This document shows, piece by piece, positions 1-14,539 of a DNA stretch of 14,807 nucleotides. A model generated the notes under the pieces. That model was not told where the DNA came from. It ran no database searches and saw only the letters and a list, made by a program, of their open reading frames with translations. The stretch comes from a virus (Duplodnaviria; Heunggongvirae; Uroviricota; Caudoviricetes): IMG/VR virus record IMGVR_UViG_2634166457_000018, positions 1 to 14,807 of that record; one strand, written 5' to 3'. Every line of letters starts with the position of its first letter. Positions within the stretch are counted from its first letter, which is position 1. Made by a program: the position numbers and the translations under genes.

Positions 1-1174
1 TTACGGGGTTGCAGAAATCGCCGTTTTTCCATCGTATTCTGCAAGGTAAGAGCCGTAATGTCTGAACAGCATTTCCGGTCCTTTATGCCCCATCTGACCA
101 GCAAGCCAGAACAGGTTTACGCCCTGGCTAATGTGCCGAGTGGCGAACGTGTGGCGTGTCTGGTACGGATTGCGATAGCGTACACCAGCTTTTTTAAGGG
201 TTGGTCCCCAGGCTTTTTTTCGGATCGCATCTGCGTTTGCCCAAGGAGCGCGAGTTTTCGGATCGCTGAATATGAAGTCGCTCTTTAGCGCCGTGTAGGG
301 CTTTTGTGCCTGAAGAGCCGCCAGCGCTTCGCTGTTCAGTTGCACTTTGCGGGTGCCGGCTTTTGTTTTGGTGCTTTTGATTACCCCGACTACGCTTGCA
401 GTTTGAACATGCGCGGTGTTGCCGATGAAGTCTATATCCGTCCAGCGCAACGCGCACAATTCTGAGCTACGCAGTCCGGTATTAAAGGCAAAGCGAAACA
501 GATTTCGCCATTCCGGGTAATGACAGGCGTCATAGATTGCTGCCGTCTCCGCTGGTGTAAAGGGATCGACCTCGTAATCACCACTGCCTGGTGTGTTGTC
601 CAATACGTGATACCGGCTGGCGCTGACTAGCGTGACAGGATTTATTGTTAACAAACCATCGGTCACCGCTTCATCTATGGCGCTGCGCAGAAACGAAAGA
701 TTATTGCGGATCGTTTTCAGTTTTGTTTTTCTGCTGGCGATCCAGTTTTTTAGTACAGCAGGTGTCAGTTCTGATACATGAAATTTATGCAATGCTGACA
801 GCGCCGACAAGCATTTTTCATAACCTCTAATTGTCGATGGTGACAGGTTACGGTTCTGGCAGATAATCAGGTATTCATCCAGGTAAGATTTTATATTTTT
901 GTTTTTTTTTCACTCCCCCGAACAACTCCAGCTTTTGGGAGTTGGGGAAGTATTTTGCATATTCGAAGGTACCATCGATAATCTGATTTTTTATTTCTCC
1001 CAGCAGACGCTCGGCGTACTTCACACCGCGCGCGTTTACTTCCATTCTGGAGAGGGGCTCCCGACACAGAACCCCTTTATATGTAAAAGTGATAACCAGA
1101 GTGCTACCAGTTTTATGCTGCCGAATAGTTACTCCTCTAGGGAGAGATAATGATCCTTGTTCTTTCTTGCCCAT
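1..1174 (-). pseudogene. int: Tyrosine recombinase (phage integrase), apparently frameshifted: N-terminal piece 875..1174, catalytic C-terminal piece 1..810
   Basis: C-terminal ORF shows the tyrosine-recombinase catalytic pattern (HTFATRH ... LFRHYGSY). The N-terminal ORF is an arm-binding-like domain, probably starting at the internal ATG (MGKKEQ...) with SD GGAG upstream. The two pieces sit in different frames and join cleanly if one A is removed from the A9 run (plus-strand T9, 902-910). Confidence 0.8.
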
Positions 1175-1338
1175 TTTGTAATCTCCATTAAGTCGACCCA
1201 ACGTTCTTTAACTCCGTCGACTTTTAATACATGTACCCCTTCTTTCCATATTCCTCTTTGTATCCGTTTGTTAACGGCATCAACCGTTTCTCCCGCGTTG
1301 CGGCAGTAGGTTGATATAGGTACGCAATCCAGTCCCAC
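1129..1338 (-). CDS. xis: Excisionase-like small DNA-binding protein (69 aa)
   Basis: Small ORF immediately upstream of and overlapping the int 5' end, which is the usual xis position; GTG start preceded by GGTGA. Family assignment is by position and size, not by alignment. Confidence 0.5.
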   Translation of the reverse strand: MGLDCVPISTYCRNAGETVDAVNKRIQRGIWKEGVHVLKVDGVKERWVDLMEITKWARKNKDHYLSLEE

Positions 1339-1346
1339 AGTTCACC

Positions 1347-1493
1347 TCACACAACATTCAGTCCACGGCAGTGGCACCACACTTCAAACATTCGCCTCAC
1401 AACTTCACGACAGTAGAAGCCGTCAACGTCTCGCGTCAGGTCATAGCGATTGCCGTAACGCTGGCGTACCCATAGCTCAAATGCTTTATTCAT
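1347..1493 (-). CDS. Hypothetical small protein (48 aa, MNKAFELWVRQRYGNRYDL...)
   Basis: ORF not in the supplied track (below its size cutoff); ATG start with SD AAGGAA about 8 nt upstream, packed between the 80-aa gene and xis. Confidence 0.3.
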   Translation of the reverse strand: MNKAFELWVRQRYGNRYDLTRDVDGFYCREVVRRMFEVWCHCRGLNVV

Positions 1494-1496
1494 TCT

Positions 1497-1739
1497 CTAT
1501 TTCCTTTTCATGGCTCGTAATTTTTTCAGATGAGCTTCCTGCTCTGTTTCTGCCAGAATTTGTCGGTATTCTTGGTGATCGATCCGTTCAAACGATTCAT
1601 TAAAATCGCTTATTTTTACAGATTGTGTTCGCCCATCCATTCTTCTGTACAACACAGTGTTGTTTATGCAGCGAATAATTTTTATCGGGTAACCAGCACT
1701 ATCGGTGTATATCTGACCACGTTGAATCAGAGCGAACAT
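1497..1739 (-). CDS. Hypothetical phage protein (80 aa)
   Basis: ORF in the supplied track; SD AAGGAA upstream of ATG; sits in the minus-strand early-left operon. Confidence 0.55.
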   Translation of the reverse strand: MFALIQRGQIYTDSAGYPIKIIRCINNTVLYRRMDGRTQSVKISDFNESFERIDHQEYRQILAETEQEAHLKKLRAMKRK

Positions 1740-1743
1740 TCCT

Positions 1744-1830
1744 TTATCCCCAGCGGAAAAGCGAATACAGAATAAATGCCACCGCTATTGCAACTCCTAC
1801 TGCGGTGAATGCTTCAGGCCAATTCATCAT
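1744..1830 (-). CDS. Small hydrophobic peptide (28 aa, MMNWPEAFTAVGVAIAVAFILYSLFRWG), putative single-pass membrane peptide
   Basis: ATG overlaps the stop of the upstream 209-aa gene (ATGA overlap); SD GGAGGTGA upstream; hydrophobic core typical of a transmembrane helix. Confidence 0.3.
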   Translation of the reverse strand: MMNWPEAFTAVGVAIAVAFILYSLFRWG

Positions 1831-2456
1831 TTCACCTCCACGCCGATCCCGGCAATAACACAATCCCGTTTGATAGCTTCTTTCACCCAGCGTTTATAGG
1901 TTTCCGGATGGAATTTTGCGTTTTTTCCGGTACCGCTCCAGAATGCCTTTGATGTGATATCGAGCAGGGTGATGGTCAGGCCTTTCTTCTTGCTGCCTTC
2001 AGAACTTTTGCAAAAAGTTAATGCGTCGCGTAGTTCTTTAACACACGCATAGTTTTCTGCTTTCTCTGGGTCGCCGGTACGGTGTTCAGCTTCTTGTCTG
2101 CACCATTTGATGACTTTCTCTGCGGCTGCGTGGAGACGCTGACGTTGCCAGTCGTATGTGTCGACCAGCCCATATGCGTGATTCTTTGCTTTGCTTAATT
2201 CAGCGACGAGGCATTCGGAATCAATCAGATTATTTTCCGCAGCGGATAGTGCTTGTTTCAGTCGCTCGATTTCTTCAGCCATGTAATAGCCGGTTTTACT
2301 CCAGGTATCGACATCATCGTCACTCATATCCAGTTCCATCGACGCCATCAGAACGGCGTCGTGATAGTTCTGGCTACCGCAGGTGATTGCAACGGCGTAG
2401 GAGTCACTATTTTCGCGCTTATGGATAAGTACAACTGGGTTTTTGATCTTGCCCAT
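1827..2456 (-). CDS. Hypothetical phage protein (209 aa)
   Basis: Long ORF co-oriented with the early-left operon; no motif I can assign. Confidence 0.65.
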   Translation of the reverse strand: MGKIKNPVVLIHKRENSDSYAVAITCGSQNYHDAVLMASMELDMSDDDVDTWSKTGYYMAEEIERLKQALSAAENNLIDSECLVAELSKAKNHAYGLVDTYDWQRQRLHAAAEKVIKWCRQEAEHRTGDPEKAENYACVKELRDALTFCKSSEGSKKKGLTITLLDITSKAFWSGTGKNAKFHPETYKRWVKEAIKRDCVIAGIGVEVK

Positions 2457-2464
2457 CCCGCACC

Positions 2465-2560
2465 TCAGTAATTCATTAAAAATTTATATTCAATCAGCGC
2501 ACCGAAAACGACGGACGCCAGCAGCAGACCAAACAGCATGGACAGGAGGAATGACTTCAT
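2465..2560 (-). CDS. Small hydrophobic peptide (31 aa, MKSFLLSMLFGLLLASVVFGALIEYKFLMNY)
   Basis: ATGA overlap with the stop of the upstream 74-aa gene; SD GGGAGG 7 nt upstream; sequence resembles a signal peptide or transmembrane helix. Confidence 0.3.
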   Translation of the reverse strand: MKSFLLSMLFGLLLASVVFGALIEYKFLMNY

Positions 2561-2781
2561 CGCTTTGCCTCCCGCTGTACGATTTTGTAGGCGCGCAGGA
2601 TGTCGCGTGTTTTTCCTGACAACGATGACTTAACCCAGAAAAAGCCGCTGCGGTTTTCAGTGATCCCCGGTACATTAAACAGCACCGCATCAACAACGCG
2701 GTTATGCTTTCGCAATGTCAGGCAGGAACTGGTGATCACGGTGTTCGCTACGGCGCCATAGTCCTGGTATTGGATTTTCAT
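2557..2781 (-). CDS. Hypothetical phage protein (74 aa)
   Basis: ORF abuts the upstream gene (TAA immediately followed by ATG at 2781/2782), consistent with operon packing. Confidence 0.55.
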   Translation of the reverse strand: MKIQYQDYGAVANTVITSSCLTLRKHNRVVDAVLFNVPGITENRSGFFWVKSSLSGKTRDILRAYKIVQREAKR

Positions 2782-3120
2782 TTACATGTTCCCCATAACG
2801 GTATCGCTCATGTCGTTGACCATGCTCTGCCAGATTTCTTTGCCGCTTTGCGTCAGCTCGTTTCCACGAACGCATTTGCTTAACAGCTGAATACCAACGG
2901 CTTCCCATTGGGGGTAATTTTCTTTGATAGCCTTCAGAGCATAACCATCGATTAAGTCTCTGATGCCTTTAACCCCACCGATGATGTTTACTCGTATGGA
3001 TTGTCCATTGGCATTAATCATGAAATGATCGCCGCTGGTGGCGGATATGTGGTTGTGCAGTGCAGCCGCATACTGATTTGCCAGCGCATTGAGGCGGAAA
3101 TTTTGTGTAATGAGTGGCAT
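2782..3120 (-). CDS. Hypothetical phage protein (112 aa)
   Basis: ORF whose start overlaps the stop of the upstream 248-aa gene by 1 nt. Confidence 0.6.
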   Translation of the reverse strand: MPLITQNFRLNALANQYAAALHNHISATSGDHFMINANGQSIRVNIIGGVKGIRDLIDGYALKAIKENYPQWEAVGIQLLSKCVRGNELTQSGKEIWQSMVNDMSDTVMGNM

Positions 3121-3866
3121 TATTTACCCTCCCAACCAATCACCTGAAACAGCCCCATTTTCGGGTGATACCAGCGGGTACCGCGTGGCTCTGCCTCTGA
3201 CATCATCTGATGAAATGCTTTCATGAACGGCTCCAGCTCCACGATAGCCCGGCGCGAAAGAAGACCATCTGGCGTCATAAATTCGTGCGTATCGGTTGGG
3301 ATGCTGTAGGCATTGACCAGATTGCGGCACTTAGCATCAGTCATTCCGCTTTTGGCGACCACCTGGCGATAACCGACATATCCGGCGCGCATATTTCCGC
3401 GTTTGATGGTTTCCACCGCTTCTGTGACTGTTTCGAGCTGTTCTTCCACATGATTCAGGCGCTTCTGTTGACGAACAGCGTCGGCGGCTATCGCAGCGAT
3501 CATCTCGATTTCCGTTAGCGGTGTGCGAGTGCGGAAGTAGCTGTTAACCAGTTCGCGCTGAACCTGCCAGGCAAGGGCGTCATTGAATGACTTCGTCAAC
3601 ATCAGGTAACCTGATTCAAAAAGTACAATCCCCGATGGTGCAAATTTAGAGAATGTTCCTTCCGGGAGGTCCGTACGTATTACGTCCGCACCTAATTCGG
3701 CATAATCCACACCGCTGATGAAATGCTCACGGTTTCGGTTGAATGCTGCGCGCGCGGTTCCTTCCGGTCGCTGGTGGACTTCATCAATCATCGCCAGCGT
3801 CACAACACGCTGACCGCGATATTCGACTGCCGGAAGCTGTTTGTTATTGATCGTTACTATGTTCAT
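3120..3866 (-). CDS. ORF6N/KilA-N-like domain protein, putative phage antirepressor (248 aa)
   Basis: N-terminus (MNIVTINNKQLPAVEYRGQRVVTLAMIDEVHQRPEGTARAAFNRNREHFISGVDYAEL) fits my recollection of the ORF6N/KilA-N antirepressor-type domain; SD GAGGTGGA upstream of ATG. Family call from memory, not verified by search. Confidence 0.6.
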   Translation of the reverse strand: MNIVTINNKQLPAVEYRGQRVVTLAMIDEVHQRPEGTARAAFNRNREHFISGVDYAELGADVIRTDLPEGTFSKFAPSGIVLFESGYLMLTKSFNDALAWQVQRELVNSYFRTRTPLTEIEMIAAIAADAVRQQKRLNHVEEQLETVTEAVETIKRGNMRAGYVGYRQVVAKSGMTDAKCRNLVNAYSIPTDTHEFMTPDGLLSRRAIVELEPFMKAFHQMMSEAEPRGTRWYHPKMGLFQVIGWEGK

Positions 3867-3877
3867 TTTCGTCCACC

Positions 3878-4033
3878 TCAGTGCATAACCGGCATGTCTG
3901 GCATACCGTCTTTCTGAATCAGTTCAATGAAGCTGTCATGTAGTATGTTGAATCCCTCCCGGCCCATCGCTGACAGCCTGAATCCGCATTTCTCGTCAGT
4001 TACAACCATGTCCTGATACATACGCAGCGCCAT
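3878..4033 (-). CDS. Hypothetical small protein (51 aa, MALRMYQDMVVTDEKCGF...)
   Basis: ORF not in the supplied track; ATG 3 nt after the stop of the upstream 140-aa gene, so possible termination-reinitiation coupling; no strong SD. Confidence 0.3.
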   Translation of the reverse strand: MALRMYQDMVVTDEKCGFRLSAMGREGFNILHDSFIELIQKDGMPDMPVMH

Positions 4034-4036
4034 CTG

Positions 4037-4459
4037 CTAGCCAACGTCAGGCCCGTATTTTTCAATTGCGCACGCCTCGATATGGTTAGCGAGCGCGAAG
4101 CGCTCAGACCACGGATAAATGCTGATTGAACCGGGTTTTCCTGTGTATACAACGGCTGTATCTACGCCGCCCTTGTCATTCTGAACATCGACAGTCCCGT
4201 TCTTCTCCTGCTCCTCAGCAATGAACACGGCGACAACAAGCCAGCGCCATAGGATGATTTGTTTTTCAATACACGGCATAAACCAGCCGCTTTCAATCCC
4301 TTCCATAATGCAAGCTATCAGATCGAGCCCGTCCGGAATTCGTTTGTCATAGTTACCGTTGTCGATCTGGCGAACCGCAGTTGAATAACCAATAATTCGA
4401 TTACCAAAACGGATGCCTGTTAATGTAGGTTCAGGGGTAATGGTTGAATTAATCATCAA
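4037..4459 (-). CDS. Hypothetical phage protein (140 aa)
   Basis: ORF with SD AGGAG upstream of ATG. Confidence 0.65.
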   Translation of the reverse strand: MMINSTITPEPTLTGIRFGNRIIGYSTAVRQIDNGNYDKRIPDGLDLIACIMEGIESGWFMPCIEKQIILWRWLVVAVFIAEEQEKNGTVDVQNDKGGVDTAVVYTGKPGSISIYPWSERFALANHIEACAIEKYGPDVG

Positions 4460-4489
4460 TACTCTCCTTTTGGTTTGAAGGTTTATTGT

Positions 4490-4711
4490 TCATTTCCGGT
4501 CCTTAACTTTGCTGTATCGTTCATGGCTCATTACTTCCCAGTTCTGGCCGCCGTCTCGGGACAGCAGCCGCCAGCGGCGATTAACCCTCAGACTCAGGTT
4601 TCCGGAGCCGCGCATACGACAGGGATGAATTCGTCTGGCTCTGAACTGGCGGAGAACACGGACCGCCTGCAGGTGCACCCACTCAGGAATTCGTATTGCT
4701 GTTAATGTCAC
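4490..4711 (-). CDS. Uncertain ORF encoding an Arg-rich basic peptide (at most 73 aa; true start unclear)
   Basis: Only long minus-strand frame in the 4490-4680 gap; its 5' end overlaps the 69-aa gene by 29 nt; many rare Arg codons; an alternative plus-strand ORF (4475..4705) also exists. Coding status unresolved. Confidence 0.2.
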   Translation of the reverse strand: MTLTAIRIPEWVHLQAVRVLRQFRARRIHPCRMRGSGNLSLRVNRRWRLLSRDGGQNWEVMSHERYSKVKDRK

Positions 4712-4892
4712 CGATTTCCTCCAGATCAGGAGCGATTACCTGATATCCCGCTTTCTTTGCTATCCATAAGAAGGTATCCATGCTGGCAATCATCTCGTTA
4801 TTGTGAACTTTACGGGTATTTATTACCTGACCATTTTCAATCGTCATAATGAGCTGTACTTTTTCGTGTATAAGAGGGGATAAATCAGACAT
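4683..4892 (-). CDS. Hypothetical protein (69 aa)
   Basis: Strong SD GGAGGA upstream; start overlaps the stop of the upstream 119-aa gene (TGATG); lies in an AT-rich block. Confidence 0.55.
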   Translation of the reverse strand: MSDLSPLIHEKVQLIMTIENGQVINTRKVHNNEMIASMDTFLWIAKKAGYQVIAPDLEEIGDINSNTNS

Positions 4893-5251
4893 CAGTTAAT
4901 TCCTCCACTGATATATTTCTCTTTTACGTAGTCAACAACCTCTTTTAAAAGGCCGTCCACTATCAGTTTCCCTGATTCAGTGAGATATTCCGTGTGTTGA
5001 TTAATACCGATGGCATTCTGGTATGCGGTACGGATTGTTGCTTCTCCTTCCGTCCGTCCATATTCAACACGGGTAAGACCCTCAAATCGTAATAACAACT
5101 GGTTCATGAACTGTTCAGTTATTTCTATCGTTGTTATTTCTCCGTCCGGGAGGTCAACGACGAGCAGATTACTACCTGTTTTACGTTGCATCCGCCGGAG
5201 TGCCGCTGTTACCATGCGGCGACGATCTTTATAAATGGTTGTACATGCCAT
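4892..5251 (-). CDS. Hypothetical protein (119 aa)
   Basis: ORF in an AT-rich block, translationally coupled to the 69-aa gene downstream. Confidence 0.6.
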   Translation of the reverse strand: MACTTIYKDRRRMVTAALRRMQRKTGSNLLVVDLPDGEITTIEITEQFMNQLLLRFEGLTRVEYGRTEGEATIRTAYQNAIGINQHTEYLTESGKLIVDGLLKEVVDYVKEKYISGGIN

Positions 5252-5254
5252 TTG

Positions 5255-5353
5255 TTATTTCCCGTATGCTTTTCTGAGAAACAGTATTGCAACTGACCAG
5301 TATCCTGCATTAGCCATTAATAATGCGGTTTTATAAGCGTTTCTATTTTTCAT
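5255..5353 (-). CDS. Small hydrophobic peptide (32 aa, MKNRNAYKTALLMANAGYWSVAILFLRKAYGK)
   Basis: ORF not in the supplied track; SD GGTGA upstream; stop lies 3 nt before the start of the 119-aa gene. Confidence 0.3.
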   Translation of the reverse strand: MKNRNAYKTALLMANAGYWSVAILFLRKAYGK

Positions 5354-5435
5354 GCATCACCATTATTTTCTGGTTGTGGAAATCCACGACCAGAGGCCGT
5401 CATGTTTTTATGTGTGATTTTTTACTGAGTGTTCT

Positions 5436-5627
5436 TTATTCGTTGCGTAGTGTTTCTATATACTCGTAAGCCATTTCACAGGTCTTATTCATGGAGCGAA
5501 TGAGGCAGCATAAATAATCGTCTACCTCTCCTGAGTCGGGCGAATTCTTAAATATAAATTCAAGCATTGATGTATTCTCTTTTATTTGTGCTGCCACTTC
5601 CTCAAGAATATTTAATGGAGTTTTCAT
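5436..5627 (-). CDS. Small acidic protein (63 aa), third gene of the cI-adjacent cassette
   Basis: ATGA overlap with the stop of the upstream 63-aa gene; AT-rich; acidic composition (many D/E). Confidence 0.55.
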   Translation of the reverse strand: MKTPLNILEEVAAQIKENTSMLEFIFKNSPDSGEVDDYLCCLIRSMNKTCEMAYEYIETLRNE

Positions 5628-5815
5628 GTTCTTTGCTCCTTAAATGCATCGCATGCGCTTCTGGCGTATTGTTGTGCCAGTAAAAAGATATCATCCGAAA
5701 GTTCATCACATTCTTCATCACCGGAAGCCGAAATGATTAACCCCGCTTCAAGCAGTACGGCAATGTGATGAAAAGCTGTCTCCGGTTCGTTGGTAAGGCC
5801 CTTGAACATTTTCAT
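5624..5815 (-). CDS. Small acidic protein (63 aa, start at internal ATG: MKMFKGLTNEPETAF...), second gene of the cassette
   Basis: The track ORF 5624..5848 overlaps the upstream gene by 32 nt. The internal ATG at 5813-5815 has SD AGGAGG 9 nt upstream and lies 1 nt after the upstream stop, so is the likelier start. Confidence 0.5.
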   Translation of the reverse strand: MKMFKGLTNEPETAFHHIAVLLEAGLIISASGDEECDELSDDIFLLAQQYARSACDAFKEQRT

Positions 5816-5816
5816 C

Positions 5817-6245
5817 TTATGCTTCCTCCTGATTTTGTTTATAAGCATCAGTCAATAACAACATTGGATCACAGCCAAGAACATTAGCCAGAGGGATAAG
5901 CATGCTGATGGTTGGTTCGTACTCTCCGCTTTCCCACTGGATGATAATTTCTTCATCGAGATCGAGCAGCCTGGCGAGTTCGGCGGTTGTTAAGCCGCAG
6001 GCTTCGCGTTGGGTGCGGATTTTATTTGGTTGTTTGTTGATTATGTGATTATGTAATGGATAAGTAGCAGACAGGGCGTATTCATGAACAAACTCCATGA
6101 CTTCAAACCCCAATTCTTTAGAGCGATCACCATCAATTAAATGGAAAGTACGAGCAGCACCTACCAGATTTGCAATATTTAATGCAAAGGATTCTTTTTC
6201 GAAGTGGTTTAAGTTCGATATCTCAGTGGTTGTCAGATCTTTCAT
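5817..6245 (-). CDS. Two-domain protein with C-terminal XRE-type helix-turn-helix (142 aa), first gene of the cI-adjacent cassette
   Basis: C-terminal segment IRTQREACGLTTAELARLLDLDEEIIIQWESGEYEPTISMLIPLANVLGCDP fits the Cro/C1 (XRE) HTH pattern; the N-terminal 75 aa match nothing I recognise. Confidence 0.7.
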   Translation of the reverse strand: MKDLTTTEISNLNHFEKESFALNIANLVGAARTFHLIDGDRSKELGFEVMEFVHEYALSATYPLHNHIINKQPNKIRTQREACGLTTAELARLLDLDEEIIIQWESGEYEPTISMLIPLANVLGCDPMLLLTDAYKQNQEEA

Positions 6246-6391
6246 TGAATCACTATCAATTTAAAATTAACAATAAATCAAGTTAAAATTGATGGTGTGA
6301 TGTTAGATCTTGATTGATGGAATTGTCAAGAAAAAATTGATTTCTGCGTCTCTTTTACTTGATTTGTAAATTTTTCTTTAATAATCAATAA
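6246..6391. promoter_or_regulatory. Leftward promoter/operator region downstream of cI (PL/OL-like): sigma70-like promoter on the minus strand plus TTGAT-type operator repeats
   Basis: Minus-strand -35 TTGACA (plus coords 6324-6329), 18-nt spacer, -10 TAACAT (6300-6305); imperfect palindrome ATCAAGTTAAAATTGAT at 6277-6293 over the predicted transcript start; 13-mer TTTTACTTGATTT at 6353-6365 identical to one in the cI/cro intergenic region. Confidence 0.45.
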
Positions 6392-7081
6392 TTAACCAAA
6401 TCTATTTATATTGAATGGAACAGATGAGATTACCTTCGATTGGATATAAAGCAGCTCAAGAGCATCTTTTTCAATGCTCCAGGATTGGTAATTTGGGTTA
6501 TCAGATAACACCATGATTTTACTTCCTATCTTTTGTAATCTTTTGACGTAGCATTCACCATCAAAGCAAAAAGCATAAATGCCATCACCATCAAAGTAAT
6601 TCACTGTTTTATCGAGAAAAAGAAGATCTCCTGGGGCTATTGTTGGAGCCATACTATCTCCTCTTGCGTTACCAATCTCTATGTTTTGAAATGCTCTATT
6701 GCCAACAAGGCGACGGGCATATTCAGGATCAAGCTCGATTGAGCGAACTACATCGATAAAGTCCCCACGGACATGTGTTCCATCGCCGCAACTAAACTCA
6801 ACATCGAGCACGTTAAAGACCACACTGTCAGTTCTTGCTTGATGTTTTTCCTTTGAAGAGAACTGCCGTGACGTGATTTCTCCTAAAAACCACGATTGCG
6901 GATAACCACTTATTTCGGATAACTGGGCAAGCCGGTTTCCCCTTGGAAATGTTTTTCCTGTTGTCCAGTACTGTACGGACTGTGCGCTGACACCTAACTT
7001 TCGGGCCAGCTCTGCTTGGCTCCAGCCTTTCTCCTGTAGCAGCTTTGTAATTCGATTTTCAGTGCTCTTTAAGTTTTTCAT
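6392..7081 (-). CDS. cI: CI-type phage repressor (N-terminal HTH, C-terminal S24 LexA-like peptidase domain; 229 aa)
   Basis: N-terminal HTH (LLQEKGWSQAELARKLGVSAQSVQYW); C-terminal GDSMAPTI with downstream VKRL, matching the Ser/Lys dyad pattern of LexA/CI autopeptidases; divergent from a Cro-like gene; SD AAGGA upstream. Confidence 0.9.
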   Translation of the reverse strand: MKNLKSTENRITKLLQEKGWSQAELARKLGVSAQSVQYWTTGKTFPRGNRLAQLSEISGYPQSWFLGEITSRQFSSKEKHQARTDSVVFNVLDVEFSCGDGTHVRGDFIDVVRSIELDPEYARRLVGNRAFQNIEIGNARGDSMAPTIAPGDLLFLDKTVNYFDGDGIYAFCFDGECYVKRLQKIGSKIMVLSDNPNYQSWSIEKDALELLYIQSKVISSVPFNINRFG

Positions 7082-7215
7082 TGTTAATCCTTGCTGGTTA
7101 CTTGGTTTCGATAAATTTTTACTTGATTTTAGTGTATTCGATCTTTTGTGGACTTGTATGTTAATTTAAACTTGATGTAATCTTGAATTTATAAAGTTTA
7201 GATTGGTGGGTTGCG
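7082..7215. promoter_or_regulatory. Divergent cI/cro control region (OR with PRM/PR-like promoters) carrying repeated ACTTGAT-type operator motifs
   Basis: AT-rich 134-bp spacer between divergent repressor genes; repeats ACTTGGT (7099), ACTTGAT (7121, 7171), TCTTGAA (7181); 13-mer TTTTACTTGATTT at 7117-7129. Exact -35/-10 hexamers not confidently placed. Confidence 0.6.
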
Positions 7216-7488
7216 ATGAAAGGAAATGATTACGACGCACTTCGTGAGCTAATTGCACAAAATGCCATAGCGCGAAATCTAGGCGTTACGCCGCAAGCTG
7301 TGAACCAATGGTTTTCAAAAAGAACAATTCCTGCTCGTTTCGTCTTGCGTGTATGTGAAGTTGTGGAATGGAAAGTTACTCCTCATGGGTTAAGACCAGA
7401 TCTTTATCCCCATCCTGAAGATGCAATCCCTGATTTGTTACGTAGAAGTCACACAGCCACAAATGCGGCAGTTATGAAAAACGAATGA
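7216..7488 (+). CDS. cro: Cro-like HTH regulator (YdaS-type; 90 aa)
   Basis: First rightward gene of the immunity region; HTH ARNLGVTPQAVNQW and a downstream LRPDLYP motif, which I recall as typical of YdaS-like Cro proteins; SD GGTGGG upstream. Confidence 0.7.
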   Translation: MKGNDYDALRELIAQNAIARNLGVTPQAVNQWFSKRTIPARFVLRVCEVVEWKVTPHGLRPDLYPHPEDAIPDLLRRSHTATNAAVMKNE

Positions 7489-7794: not shown

Positions 7795-8043
7795 TTGGTA
7801 CCGGGCTTAAAGGTGTCCGGTGGCTGAATCCCAAATCTCATTGCATTTGTGTACTAGCTAAGGAGTACATGCAAAATTCAGTGAGAGGAGGGGAGGGGGA
7901 GGAGTGCTCGTGTGTTAGTGCGAAGCACTGGAACAGGCTTTTCCAACAGACGGGTACATAGGTTAGGTAGATCTCGATCTAAAGGGGGATACCCCTGAAA
8001 AAACGGCCGTACCATAAAGCTAGTACAAGATGGATAAAAAAGT

Positions 8044-8412
8044 ATGAGTGAAGACCTGAAGCAAAATTTAATCGCTCTCCTGGAAGAGCAATTCATTCGC
8101 TCCGATGACAAAGTCGTTTTCGATTATGTGATGCAGAAAAAAATCAAGTCTCAGGGATACCACCTGCAACGCAATTTCAGCATCAGCATTAGCGGTGGTC
8201 GTAAAGGGTTTATTGATTGCCTGGTTACATCATCAGACGGCCAGCAGTGTGCCATTGAGGTCGATAAGAAGTCTCCCCGCAACCGTTCGTTGATGAAGCT
8301 GGCTCAGCTACCTGAGGGGATGTCAGGCTTTGTCCTGCTCAGGGATGGTAAGCACCCTCTTCGATATAGCGAGAACGGAATTGACGTTATTCGTGCGACG
8401 AAATTTAAGTGA
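8044..8412 (+). CDS. Hypothetical protein (122 aa), possible small PD-(D/E)xK-type (VRR-NUC-like) nuclease
   Basis: Contains GFIDCLV ...(12 aa)... AIEVDKK, resembling the D ... E-x-K core of PD-(D/E)xK nucleases; sits directly upstream of an SF2 helicase, a context I recall for phage VRR-NUC proteins. Motif-level inference only. Confidence 0.5.
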   Translation: MSEDLKQNLIALLEEQFIRSDDKVVFDYVMQKKIKSQGYHLQRNFSISISGGRKGFIDCLVTSSDGQQCAIEVDKKSPRNRSLMKLAQLPEGMSGFVLLRDGKHPLRYSENGIDVIRATKFK

Positions 8413-14103: not shown

Positions 14104-14180
14104 CCGTCACTAGCTCATCGGGATAGAGCATCAACCTTCTAAGTTGATGGTGCGGGGTTCGAGTCCTCGGTGACGGACCA
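14104..14180 (+). tRNA. tRNA-Arg (anticodon UCU)
   Basis: Manual cloverleaf: acceptor CCGTCAC/GTGACGG, D-stem GCTC/GAGC, anticodon stem TCAAC/GTTGA with loop CTTCTAA, T-arm CGGGG-TTCGAGT-CCTCG, discriminator A, encoded CCA; 77 nt. Begins with C1-G72, which is unusual. Confidence 0.75.
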
Positions 14181-14181
14181 T

Positions 14182-14256
<75 letters not shown>

Positions 14257-14539
14257 TGTGTTTTTTTTGTCTGCACAACAGGTAAGAGCATTCTCCCTTA
14301 TGGGGCCTGGCTTAAATGCATTGAGTGCTCTTTCCGTTGTGCTGAATTAAGCGAATGCCGGAAGCAGAACCGGATTACCAAATGCGCACGGGCGTCGTCG
14401 CCGCCCAGCAACAGCACAACCCCGACAGAGCCGTAGCCACTGGCTGTCATGAATTAATCAGTGACAGTTATGCTGCGGCCTTCTTTTTTCCCTTCCCGAT
14501 ATAAGAATTACGCCATCCGTTCCGTGCGGAGGTGAGGCT

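Follow-up and report, generated by a model that had tools for sequence, protein, structure and literature searches.

Lambda-type tyrosine integrases (PF12167 and PF00589) have a three-domain layout, an overlapping xis-like gene upstream, and an att core nearby. The change in run length described below has its closest counterpart in the "pseudo-pseudogenes" of Escherichia coli (Baranov et al., 2005; Genome Biol 6:R25, PMC1088944), which are frameshift alleles with a +1 expansion of A8 to A9, the orthologues of which keep A8 and a single ORF, and in which some of the mRNAs could regain the frame through transcriptional slippage. Genes with programmed slippage, such as mxiE of Shigella (T9), dnaX of Thermus (A9), and IS transposases, likewise have a 9-nt A/T run joining overlapping ORFs; the run and the split are conserved in those genes, but not in the gene described here.

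The present study concerns a window of 14,807 nt, which is the whole stretch of DNA that was analyzed and contains an integrase gene in two pieces. Since the reading frame is broken by an A9 run and is whole in relatives with A8, the window copy is a frameshifted allele of an arm-binding lambda-type integrase family. It resembles other members of this family in the three domains of the repaired protein, in the xis-like gene that overlaps it upstream, and in a putative att core nearby, and differs from them in that the arm domain has been cut from the core-binding and catalytic domains. The change is a homopolymer slip of the ordinary kind: it reflects a mutation of very recent date or a miscall in sequencing, and does not represent a designed switch.

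The two reading frames and the repaired integrase

The run, T9 on the plus strand and A9 (AAAAAAAAA) on the coding strand, is flanked by CGGGGGAGTG and CAAAAATATAAAATCTTACCTGGATGA and is the longest homopolymer in the window (Table 1). Three-frame translation and Pfam searches agree with the earlier note that the arm-binding ORF and the catalytic frame differ in phase; they are offset by one base, inside the run. The first frame ends in SQKLELFGGVKKKQKYKILPG and a TGA stop, and the second reads E, a stop, and KKNKNIKSYLDEYLIICQ, after which it remains open. The catalytic-frame TGA that had been placed just upstream of the run is indeed in frame, but overlaps the first A of the run. Because both frames are open only over a stretch of 32 nt that includes the run, any mutational, transcriptional, or ribosomal change of frame yielding full-length Int has to fall there, in keeping with the roughly 40 nt proposed previously, and the sole indel in the region, in an alignment with 14 close relatives, lies within the run itself.

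Table 1. Positions of features in the window and its flank (minus, coding strand of the integrase)
Feature	Position	Strand	Remark
A9 homopolymer, frameshift site	902-910	minus	one A beyond the in-frame A8 that all close relatives have; plus-strand T9
N-terminal integrase fragment, 99 aa (KNA42728.1)	875-1174	minus	ATG at 1174; open upstream to TTG at 1201; TGA stop at 875-877
Catalytic reading frame	1-909	minus	open from just past TGA 912-910 to the stop at 1-3
Mechanical ORF in the catalytic frame, 269 aa (KNA42727.1)	TTG at 810	minus	Phage_integrase domain
Overlap with both frames open, 32 nt	878-909	minus	from three-frame translation
Shine-Dalgarno-like GGGGGAG	913-919	minus	2 nt 5' of the A9 run; from sequence only
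Excisionase-like ORF, 69 aa	1129-1338	minus	46-nt overlap with the start of the integrase
A7 on the coding strand (T7 on the plus strand)	214-220		within the catalytic domain
T8 homopolymer	14261-14268		second longest run
A7 homopolymer	8137-8143		
A6/A5 polymorphism	8036-8041		2 nt upstream of the ATG of ORF 8044-8412
ParE_like ORF (PF24732)	4490-4711	minus	among the early genes
tRNA-Arg(tct) and tRNA-Gly(tcc)	14104-14256		downstream of the Q-like antiterminator
ssrA 3'-end copy, 27 nt	132-159 nt past the int stop (L004 11306-11333)		outside the window, beyond its left end

The 99-aa product consists of native residues 1-90 and an out-of-frame tail of nine residues (KQKYKILPG). In the catalytic frame, no ATG occurs until far downstream, and the TTG at 810 has no obvious ribosome-binding site, which suggests that this frame is probably not translated alone; on the same grounds, the C-terminal ORF was ruled out as an independent gene. 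The deposited names of the two products in strain M114 are "hypothetical protein" (KNA42728.1) and "phage integrase" (KNA42727.1).

As the earlier note had foreseen in proposing an integrase of about 390 aa, the deletion of one A yields a CDS of 1173 nt that encodes exactly 390 aa. The repaired protein has Arm-DNA-bind_2 (PF12167, residues 12-79, E = 2.7e-19), a SAM-like core-binding domain (PF13102, 24.8 bits against a cut-off of 22.3), and Phage_integrase (PF00589, residues 206-373, E = 1.7e-19), and is predicted to be a lambda-type tyrosine integrase with an arm-binding domain. The 99-aa fragment also matches PF12167 and contains this domain complete, and the catalytic domain is found in the 269-aa fragment. 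The nearest solved relative by sequence is the Tn1549 Int (6EN0, E = 8e-11), with a weaker match to the lambda Int (1Z1G). Alignment with 6EN0 gives R235 (TGLRSSE), the Lys in STKTKAG, R340 (PYQTRHT, in which Tyr replaces the first His), H363, and Y373 as candidate positions for the catalytic Arg, Lys, Arg, His, and Tyr, all of which are in the C-terminal ORF; compared with the Y-to-F mutant 6EMY, the register at the Tyr is displaced by one. The 69-aa ORF upstream is annotated as an excisionase in some relatives, and had no match in Pfam.

Regarding other length changes in these genes, the coding-strand A7 at 214-220 is contracted by one base in ETEC1734 (T6), the integrase of which is annotated as frameshifted, and in the run-level contig L056; the alignment lengths of ETEC1738 and ETEC4085 equal that of ETEC1734, and these two probably share the contraction. 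The integrase of phage phi467 (LN997803.1) is also split, into a 202-aa "xerC" and a 151-aa hypothetical protein, at approximately position 1001 of the locus (L008); here, compared with E2865 and PhiR12_1, one nucleotide is missing from a TT dinucleotide, and a long run is not the cause.

The prophage and the tract in its relatives

Scaffold KQ241471.1 of E. coli M114 (GCA_001186315.2) matches the window at 100% identity. The window represents the early region of a lambdoid prophage, in which xis and int are followed, in this order, by small early genes, the genes for a repressor (cI-like, S24) and a YdaS/cro-like protein, those for a helicase and a primase, the gene for a Q-like antiterminator, two tRNAs, and a DUF1737 gene. 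The best relatives over the whole window are Stx2f prophages (97.7% identity over 87% of the window). No stx gene was found in the window, and the tRNA pair occupies the position of stx2f in the closest relatives (STECUZB006 and others). The prophage is a stx-negative sibling of the Stx2f phages. To the right of the window, the scaffold continues for only 372 nt and stops just ahead of the lysis genes, presumably because sequence in common with other lambdoid prophages interrupted the assembly, and the late half is on another scaffold.

Past the int stop, a copy of the 3' end of ssrA (tmRNA), CGGGTTCAACTCCCGCCAGCTCCACCA, marks the point at which the flank homology of the relatives ends, and beyond it they carry ypjA/ehaD or another integrase island. 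This copy is the putative int-proximal att core; an adjacent attachment site and a candidate directionality factor are thus both found, in the form of the ssrA fragment and the 69-aa ORF. Stx2f phages have been reported to insert at ssrA (PMC11597368), and the M114 prophage fits this pattern.

Two small features of the early region are recorded here in their own right. For the ParE_like ORF, the two lengths of 73 aa (M114) and 62 aa (sibling assembly) result from the start call only. The A6/A5 polymorphism is located in the spacer after a ribosome-binding site, with A5 in STECUZB006 and SRR024330, and A6 in M114, F719, and GCA_051592065.1.

A homologue of the integrase was present in 131 complete E. 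coli genomes, in 25 of which the identity was at least 94.9%, and all 25 alignments at this level fell short of the window by one or two bases. The 14 complete-genome relatives that were fetched and aligned all have A8, and the other 11, which were judged by alignment length, have lengths that fit A8. A 390-aa integrase is annotated in 13 of the 14, the exception being ETEC1734, which has A8 and has lost a base at 214-220. A scan with a pattern allowing A7 to A10 also returned A8 in all IMG/VR contigs (10/10) and metagenome contigs (3/3), and no match to the tract-spanning pattern was obtained among the GTDB representative genomes. The comparison of tract lengths in sibling strains, which had been suggested as a check, therefore sets A8 in close relatives against A9 here. 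Homologues at 80-84% nucleotide identity (phages phi467, PhiR12_1, phiES15, and LMessi, and the prophages of E2865 and 25-07338) read GTA AAG AAA ACC AAA AAT (V K K T K N) at this point. As the run is interrupted in these homologues, the A8 run (GTG AAA AAA AAC) is peculiar to the present sublineage, and recoding is not conserved at this site.

The entry WP_001316577.1/EGI39666.1, from E. coli TA280, has exactly the sequence of the repaired 390-aa protein, which is encoded with A8 in TA280, GCA_051592065.1, GCA_902847985.1, and the run SRR28921530. Apart from the tract, the int CDS of TA280 has one synonymous difference from the window, and those of GCA_051592065.1 and GCA_902847985.1 have none, such that no secondary decay is detectable in the int CDS once the extra A is removed. 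Pseudogene decay had been considered because Gly323, in a first comparison of 14 integrase sequences, seemed to occur in the window only, and was dropped because this residue also occurs in the intact alleles of TA280, GCA_051592065.1, and GCA_902847985.1. Since the CDS has not decayed further, the label of a domesticated, non-excisable prophage in the earlier note was overstated, although the real mutation behind it remains a candidate.

The prophage of GCA_051592065.1 occupies the same ssrA/ypjA site and is approximately 99.95% identical over the shared 14.8 kb or so, with four SNPs and the tract as the differences; two further SNPs relative to M114 are in a chromosomal flank of about 2 kb. 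The chromosomal junction is the same in both strains, beside a 1522-aa YpjA/EhaD-like autotransporter. Over approximately 17 kb, no other homopolymer differs between M114 and this sibling, including the T8, T7, and A7 runs.

Four contigs encode exactly the 99-aa A9 product, namely, the M114 scaffold, SRR024322, SRR077219, and WVUR01000072.1 (GCA_014325405.1). SRR024322 and SRR077219, both assembled at the run level, match the window at 100% identity and carry SNPs that are specific to M114. GCA_014325405.1 represents another haplotype, with 19 differences from the window in 1340 nt and another prophage backbone, and equals strain cq9 (A8) over 2999 nt except for the tract. Because A9 is present on a separate haplotype and backbone, it arose, or was miscalled, on at least two independent occasions. 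The predicted A7 product (93 aa) was found only in seven run-level (Logan) assemblies with seven haplotypes, and three of these seven contigs show further homopolymer-length discrepancies from their closest reference. One of the three, SRR024330, the accession of which adjoins M114's run, has A7 for A8 and A5 for A6 within 2.6 kb. The predicted A10 product was absent from the protein collection searched. Since A9 occurs in an unrelated assembly and A7 in seven raw-run assemblies, the tract is unstable, miscalled, or both.

Origin of the additional A

The earlier note had offered a consensus error, a real inactivating mutation, and phase variation as explanations, of which the former two are now roughly level, while the evidence argues against the third. 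We consider a real, recent, unselected +1A slippage mutation to have about an even chance of being correct. Two runs and the deposited assembly concur on A9, and the second, unrelated assembly (GCA_014325405.1) shows the same change. The lack of any other homopolymer discrepancy from the sibling indicates that homopolymer noise is not a general feature of the M114 data in this region, and SRR024330, if wrong, errs toward contraction (A7 and A5), which is the opposite direction. Indels at runs of 8-9 nt occur at rates orders of magnitude above those of per-site substitution, and, thus, a single change in the tract between siblings that are just a few SNPs apart over 15 kb needs no selection to explain it. 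The findings on the assemblies and on the other homopolymers also count against the competing view that M114 truly has A8 and an intact int, with a miscall having passed from the reads into all of the assemblies, to which we attribute a probability somewhat below even. What speaks for a miscall is that the int CDS is otherwise identical to two A8 alleles, as would also be expected from such an error; that every finished or independent relative has A8, with deviant lengths being almost confined to raw single-run or old assemblies and absent from all 14 of the finished-genome relatives aligned; and that the affected run is the longest in the window. The A7 contigs, with SRR024330 among the discrepant ones, show that mis-sizing of the tract in raw data is common, which weighs toward error. 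We also suspect that the M114 runs, which have old accessions, are pyrosequencing runs; a full-text literature search found no paper for M114, its assembly, or its run accessions. Taken together, we lean slightly toward a real, very recent mutation over a consensus error.

Phase variation and programmed slippage are improbable even when considered jointly. A contingency locus, in which the A8/A9/A7 tract acts as a reversible switch of prophage mobility with an OFF state that frees an arm-binding peptide, would account for near-identical strains that differ in the tract, with A9 in at least two lineages and A7 in up to seven, and for the complete arm-binding domain of the OFF product. However, we regard it as very unlikely: the run is missing from the 80-84% homologues, A8 is near-universal, nothing suggests maintenance by selection, and OFF alleles are rare and come mostly from run-level assemblies that are unreliable. 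In mismatch-repair-proficient E. coli, a run of 8-9 nt slips at rates well below those of classical phase variation. The differences themselves, A9 versus A8 in two sibling pairs and A7 in seven run-level contigs, may each be due to sequencing error, and nothing pertinent was obtained when the literature was searched for integrases with phase variation driven by a homopolymer. A related notion, that the lineage-specific A8 of this ssrA-targeting integrase is a real mutational hotspot that repeatedly and reversibly grounds Stx2f-type prophages and that the freed arm domain competes for P-arm sites, is a distant prospect in our estimation; if true, the freed domain could alter the integration or excision of related phages. 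The least probable proposal is programmed recoding, in which full-length Int is made from A9 by transcriptional slippage or a +1 ribosomal frameshift, and we give it almost no weight. It is in its favor that A9 is the length at which E. coli RNA polymerase starts to slip (PMC1088944, PMC6260861) and that the Shine-Dalgarno-like GGGGGAG precedes the run. On the other hand, restoration of the frame needs a change of -1 or +2, whereas slippage in E. coli is mainly +1 (PMC5574713, PMC6260861); no slow A-site codon is present; and no significant RNA structure was detected downstream of the run (z = -0.27), which ruled out such a structure as a frameshift stimulator. Neither the run length nor the split layout is conserved, as relatives have A8 and one ORF and the diverged homologues do not have the run, and the locus therefore fails the test of conservation that defines programmed slippage and recoding (Baranov et al., 2005, PMC1088944).

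Expected consequences of the frameshift, if real, and comparison with known systems

The account that we propose starts from a lambdoid, Stx2f-phage-like, stx-negative prophage at the ssrA (tmRNA) site of E. coli M114, in which the lineage-specific A8 run would have expanded by one A through replication slippage very recently, as an unselected mutation that would be neither programmed nor conserved. Translation would end after 99 aa and release a free arm-binding domain with a nonsense tail of nine residues, the core-binding and catalytic domains would no longer be joined to the arm domain, and Int-dependent excision and reintegration would be largely lost; the same slippage could revert the mutation. 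The sequences show the difference in the tract, the separation of the domains, the intact A8 alleles of siblings, and the missing conservation; in this account, we further infer that the extra A is present in the DNA and not only in the reads, that the function of the integrase is lost, and that leakage is low.

Leakage should be small because rescue of the frame requires one A fewer or two more, or a ribosomal shift of +1 or -2. Slippage of E. coli RNA polymerase at runs mainly inserts a single base, with in-run single-base deletions being rare, and is weaker on A than on T in the sense strand (PMC6260861, PMC5574713). The GGGGGAG motif, which corresponds to the Gly-Gly-Val codons of this lineage and is specific to it, may in principle be a weak stimulator of a +1 ribosomal shift, with a spacing reminiscent of the prfB +1 frameshift stimulator; the run offers no slow A-site codon. 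As -1 and +2 changes are disfavored and a slow A-site codon is lacking, we expect only trace amounts of full-length Int from the A9 template.

For annotation, the lesson is that the integrase of M114 was deposited as two unrelated proteins, and that a tool for prophage completeness would score the element as defective even though the sole int lesion is one base. This lesion sits in the run that is most prone to miscalling, and alleles of the A8-to-A9 type may be leaky. If A9 is real, M114 and its 99.95% identical sibling form a clean natural pair, suited to measuring residual excision from a slippage-prone, frameshifted int in a relative of the Stx2f phages.

Among known systems, defective or "grounded" prophages with mutated integrases (PMC6379469) are comparable in that a single lesion in int would lock a normal-looking prophage in the chromosome. 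The present int differs from theirs in showing no further decay, and only the early region of the prophage is on the scaffold. The frameshift itself is one more case of a known type, or a sequencing artifact, and raises no new biological question. Integrases are not mentioned among the alleles of Baranov et al. (2005, PMC1088944), and the gene described here is a prophage integrase. If A9 is real, it belongs to the same class, with a +1 expansion of A8 and orthologues that retain A8 and a single ORF, and it may be a "pseudo-pseudogene" in their sense, the new run being long enough for polymerase slippage (PMC1088944).
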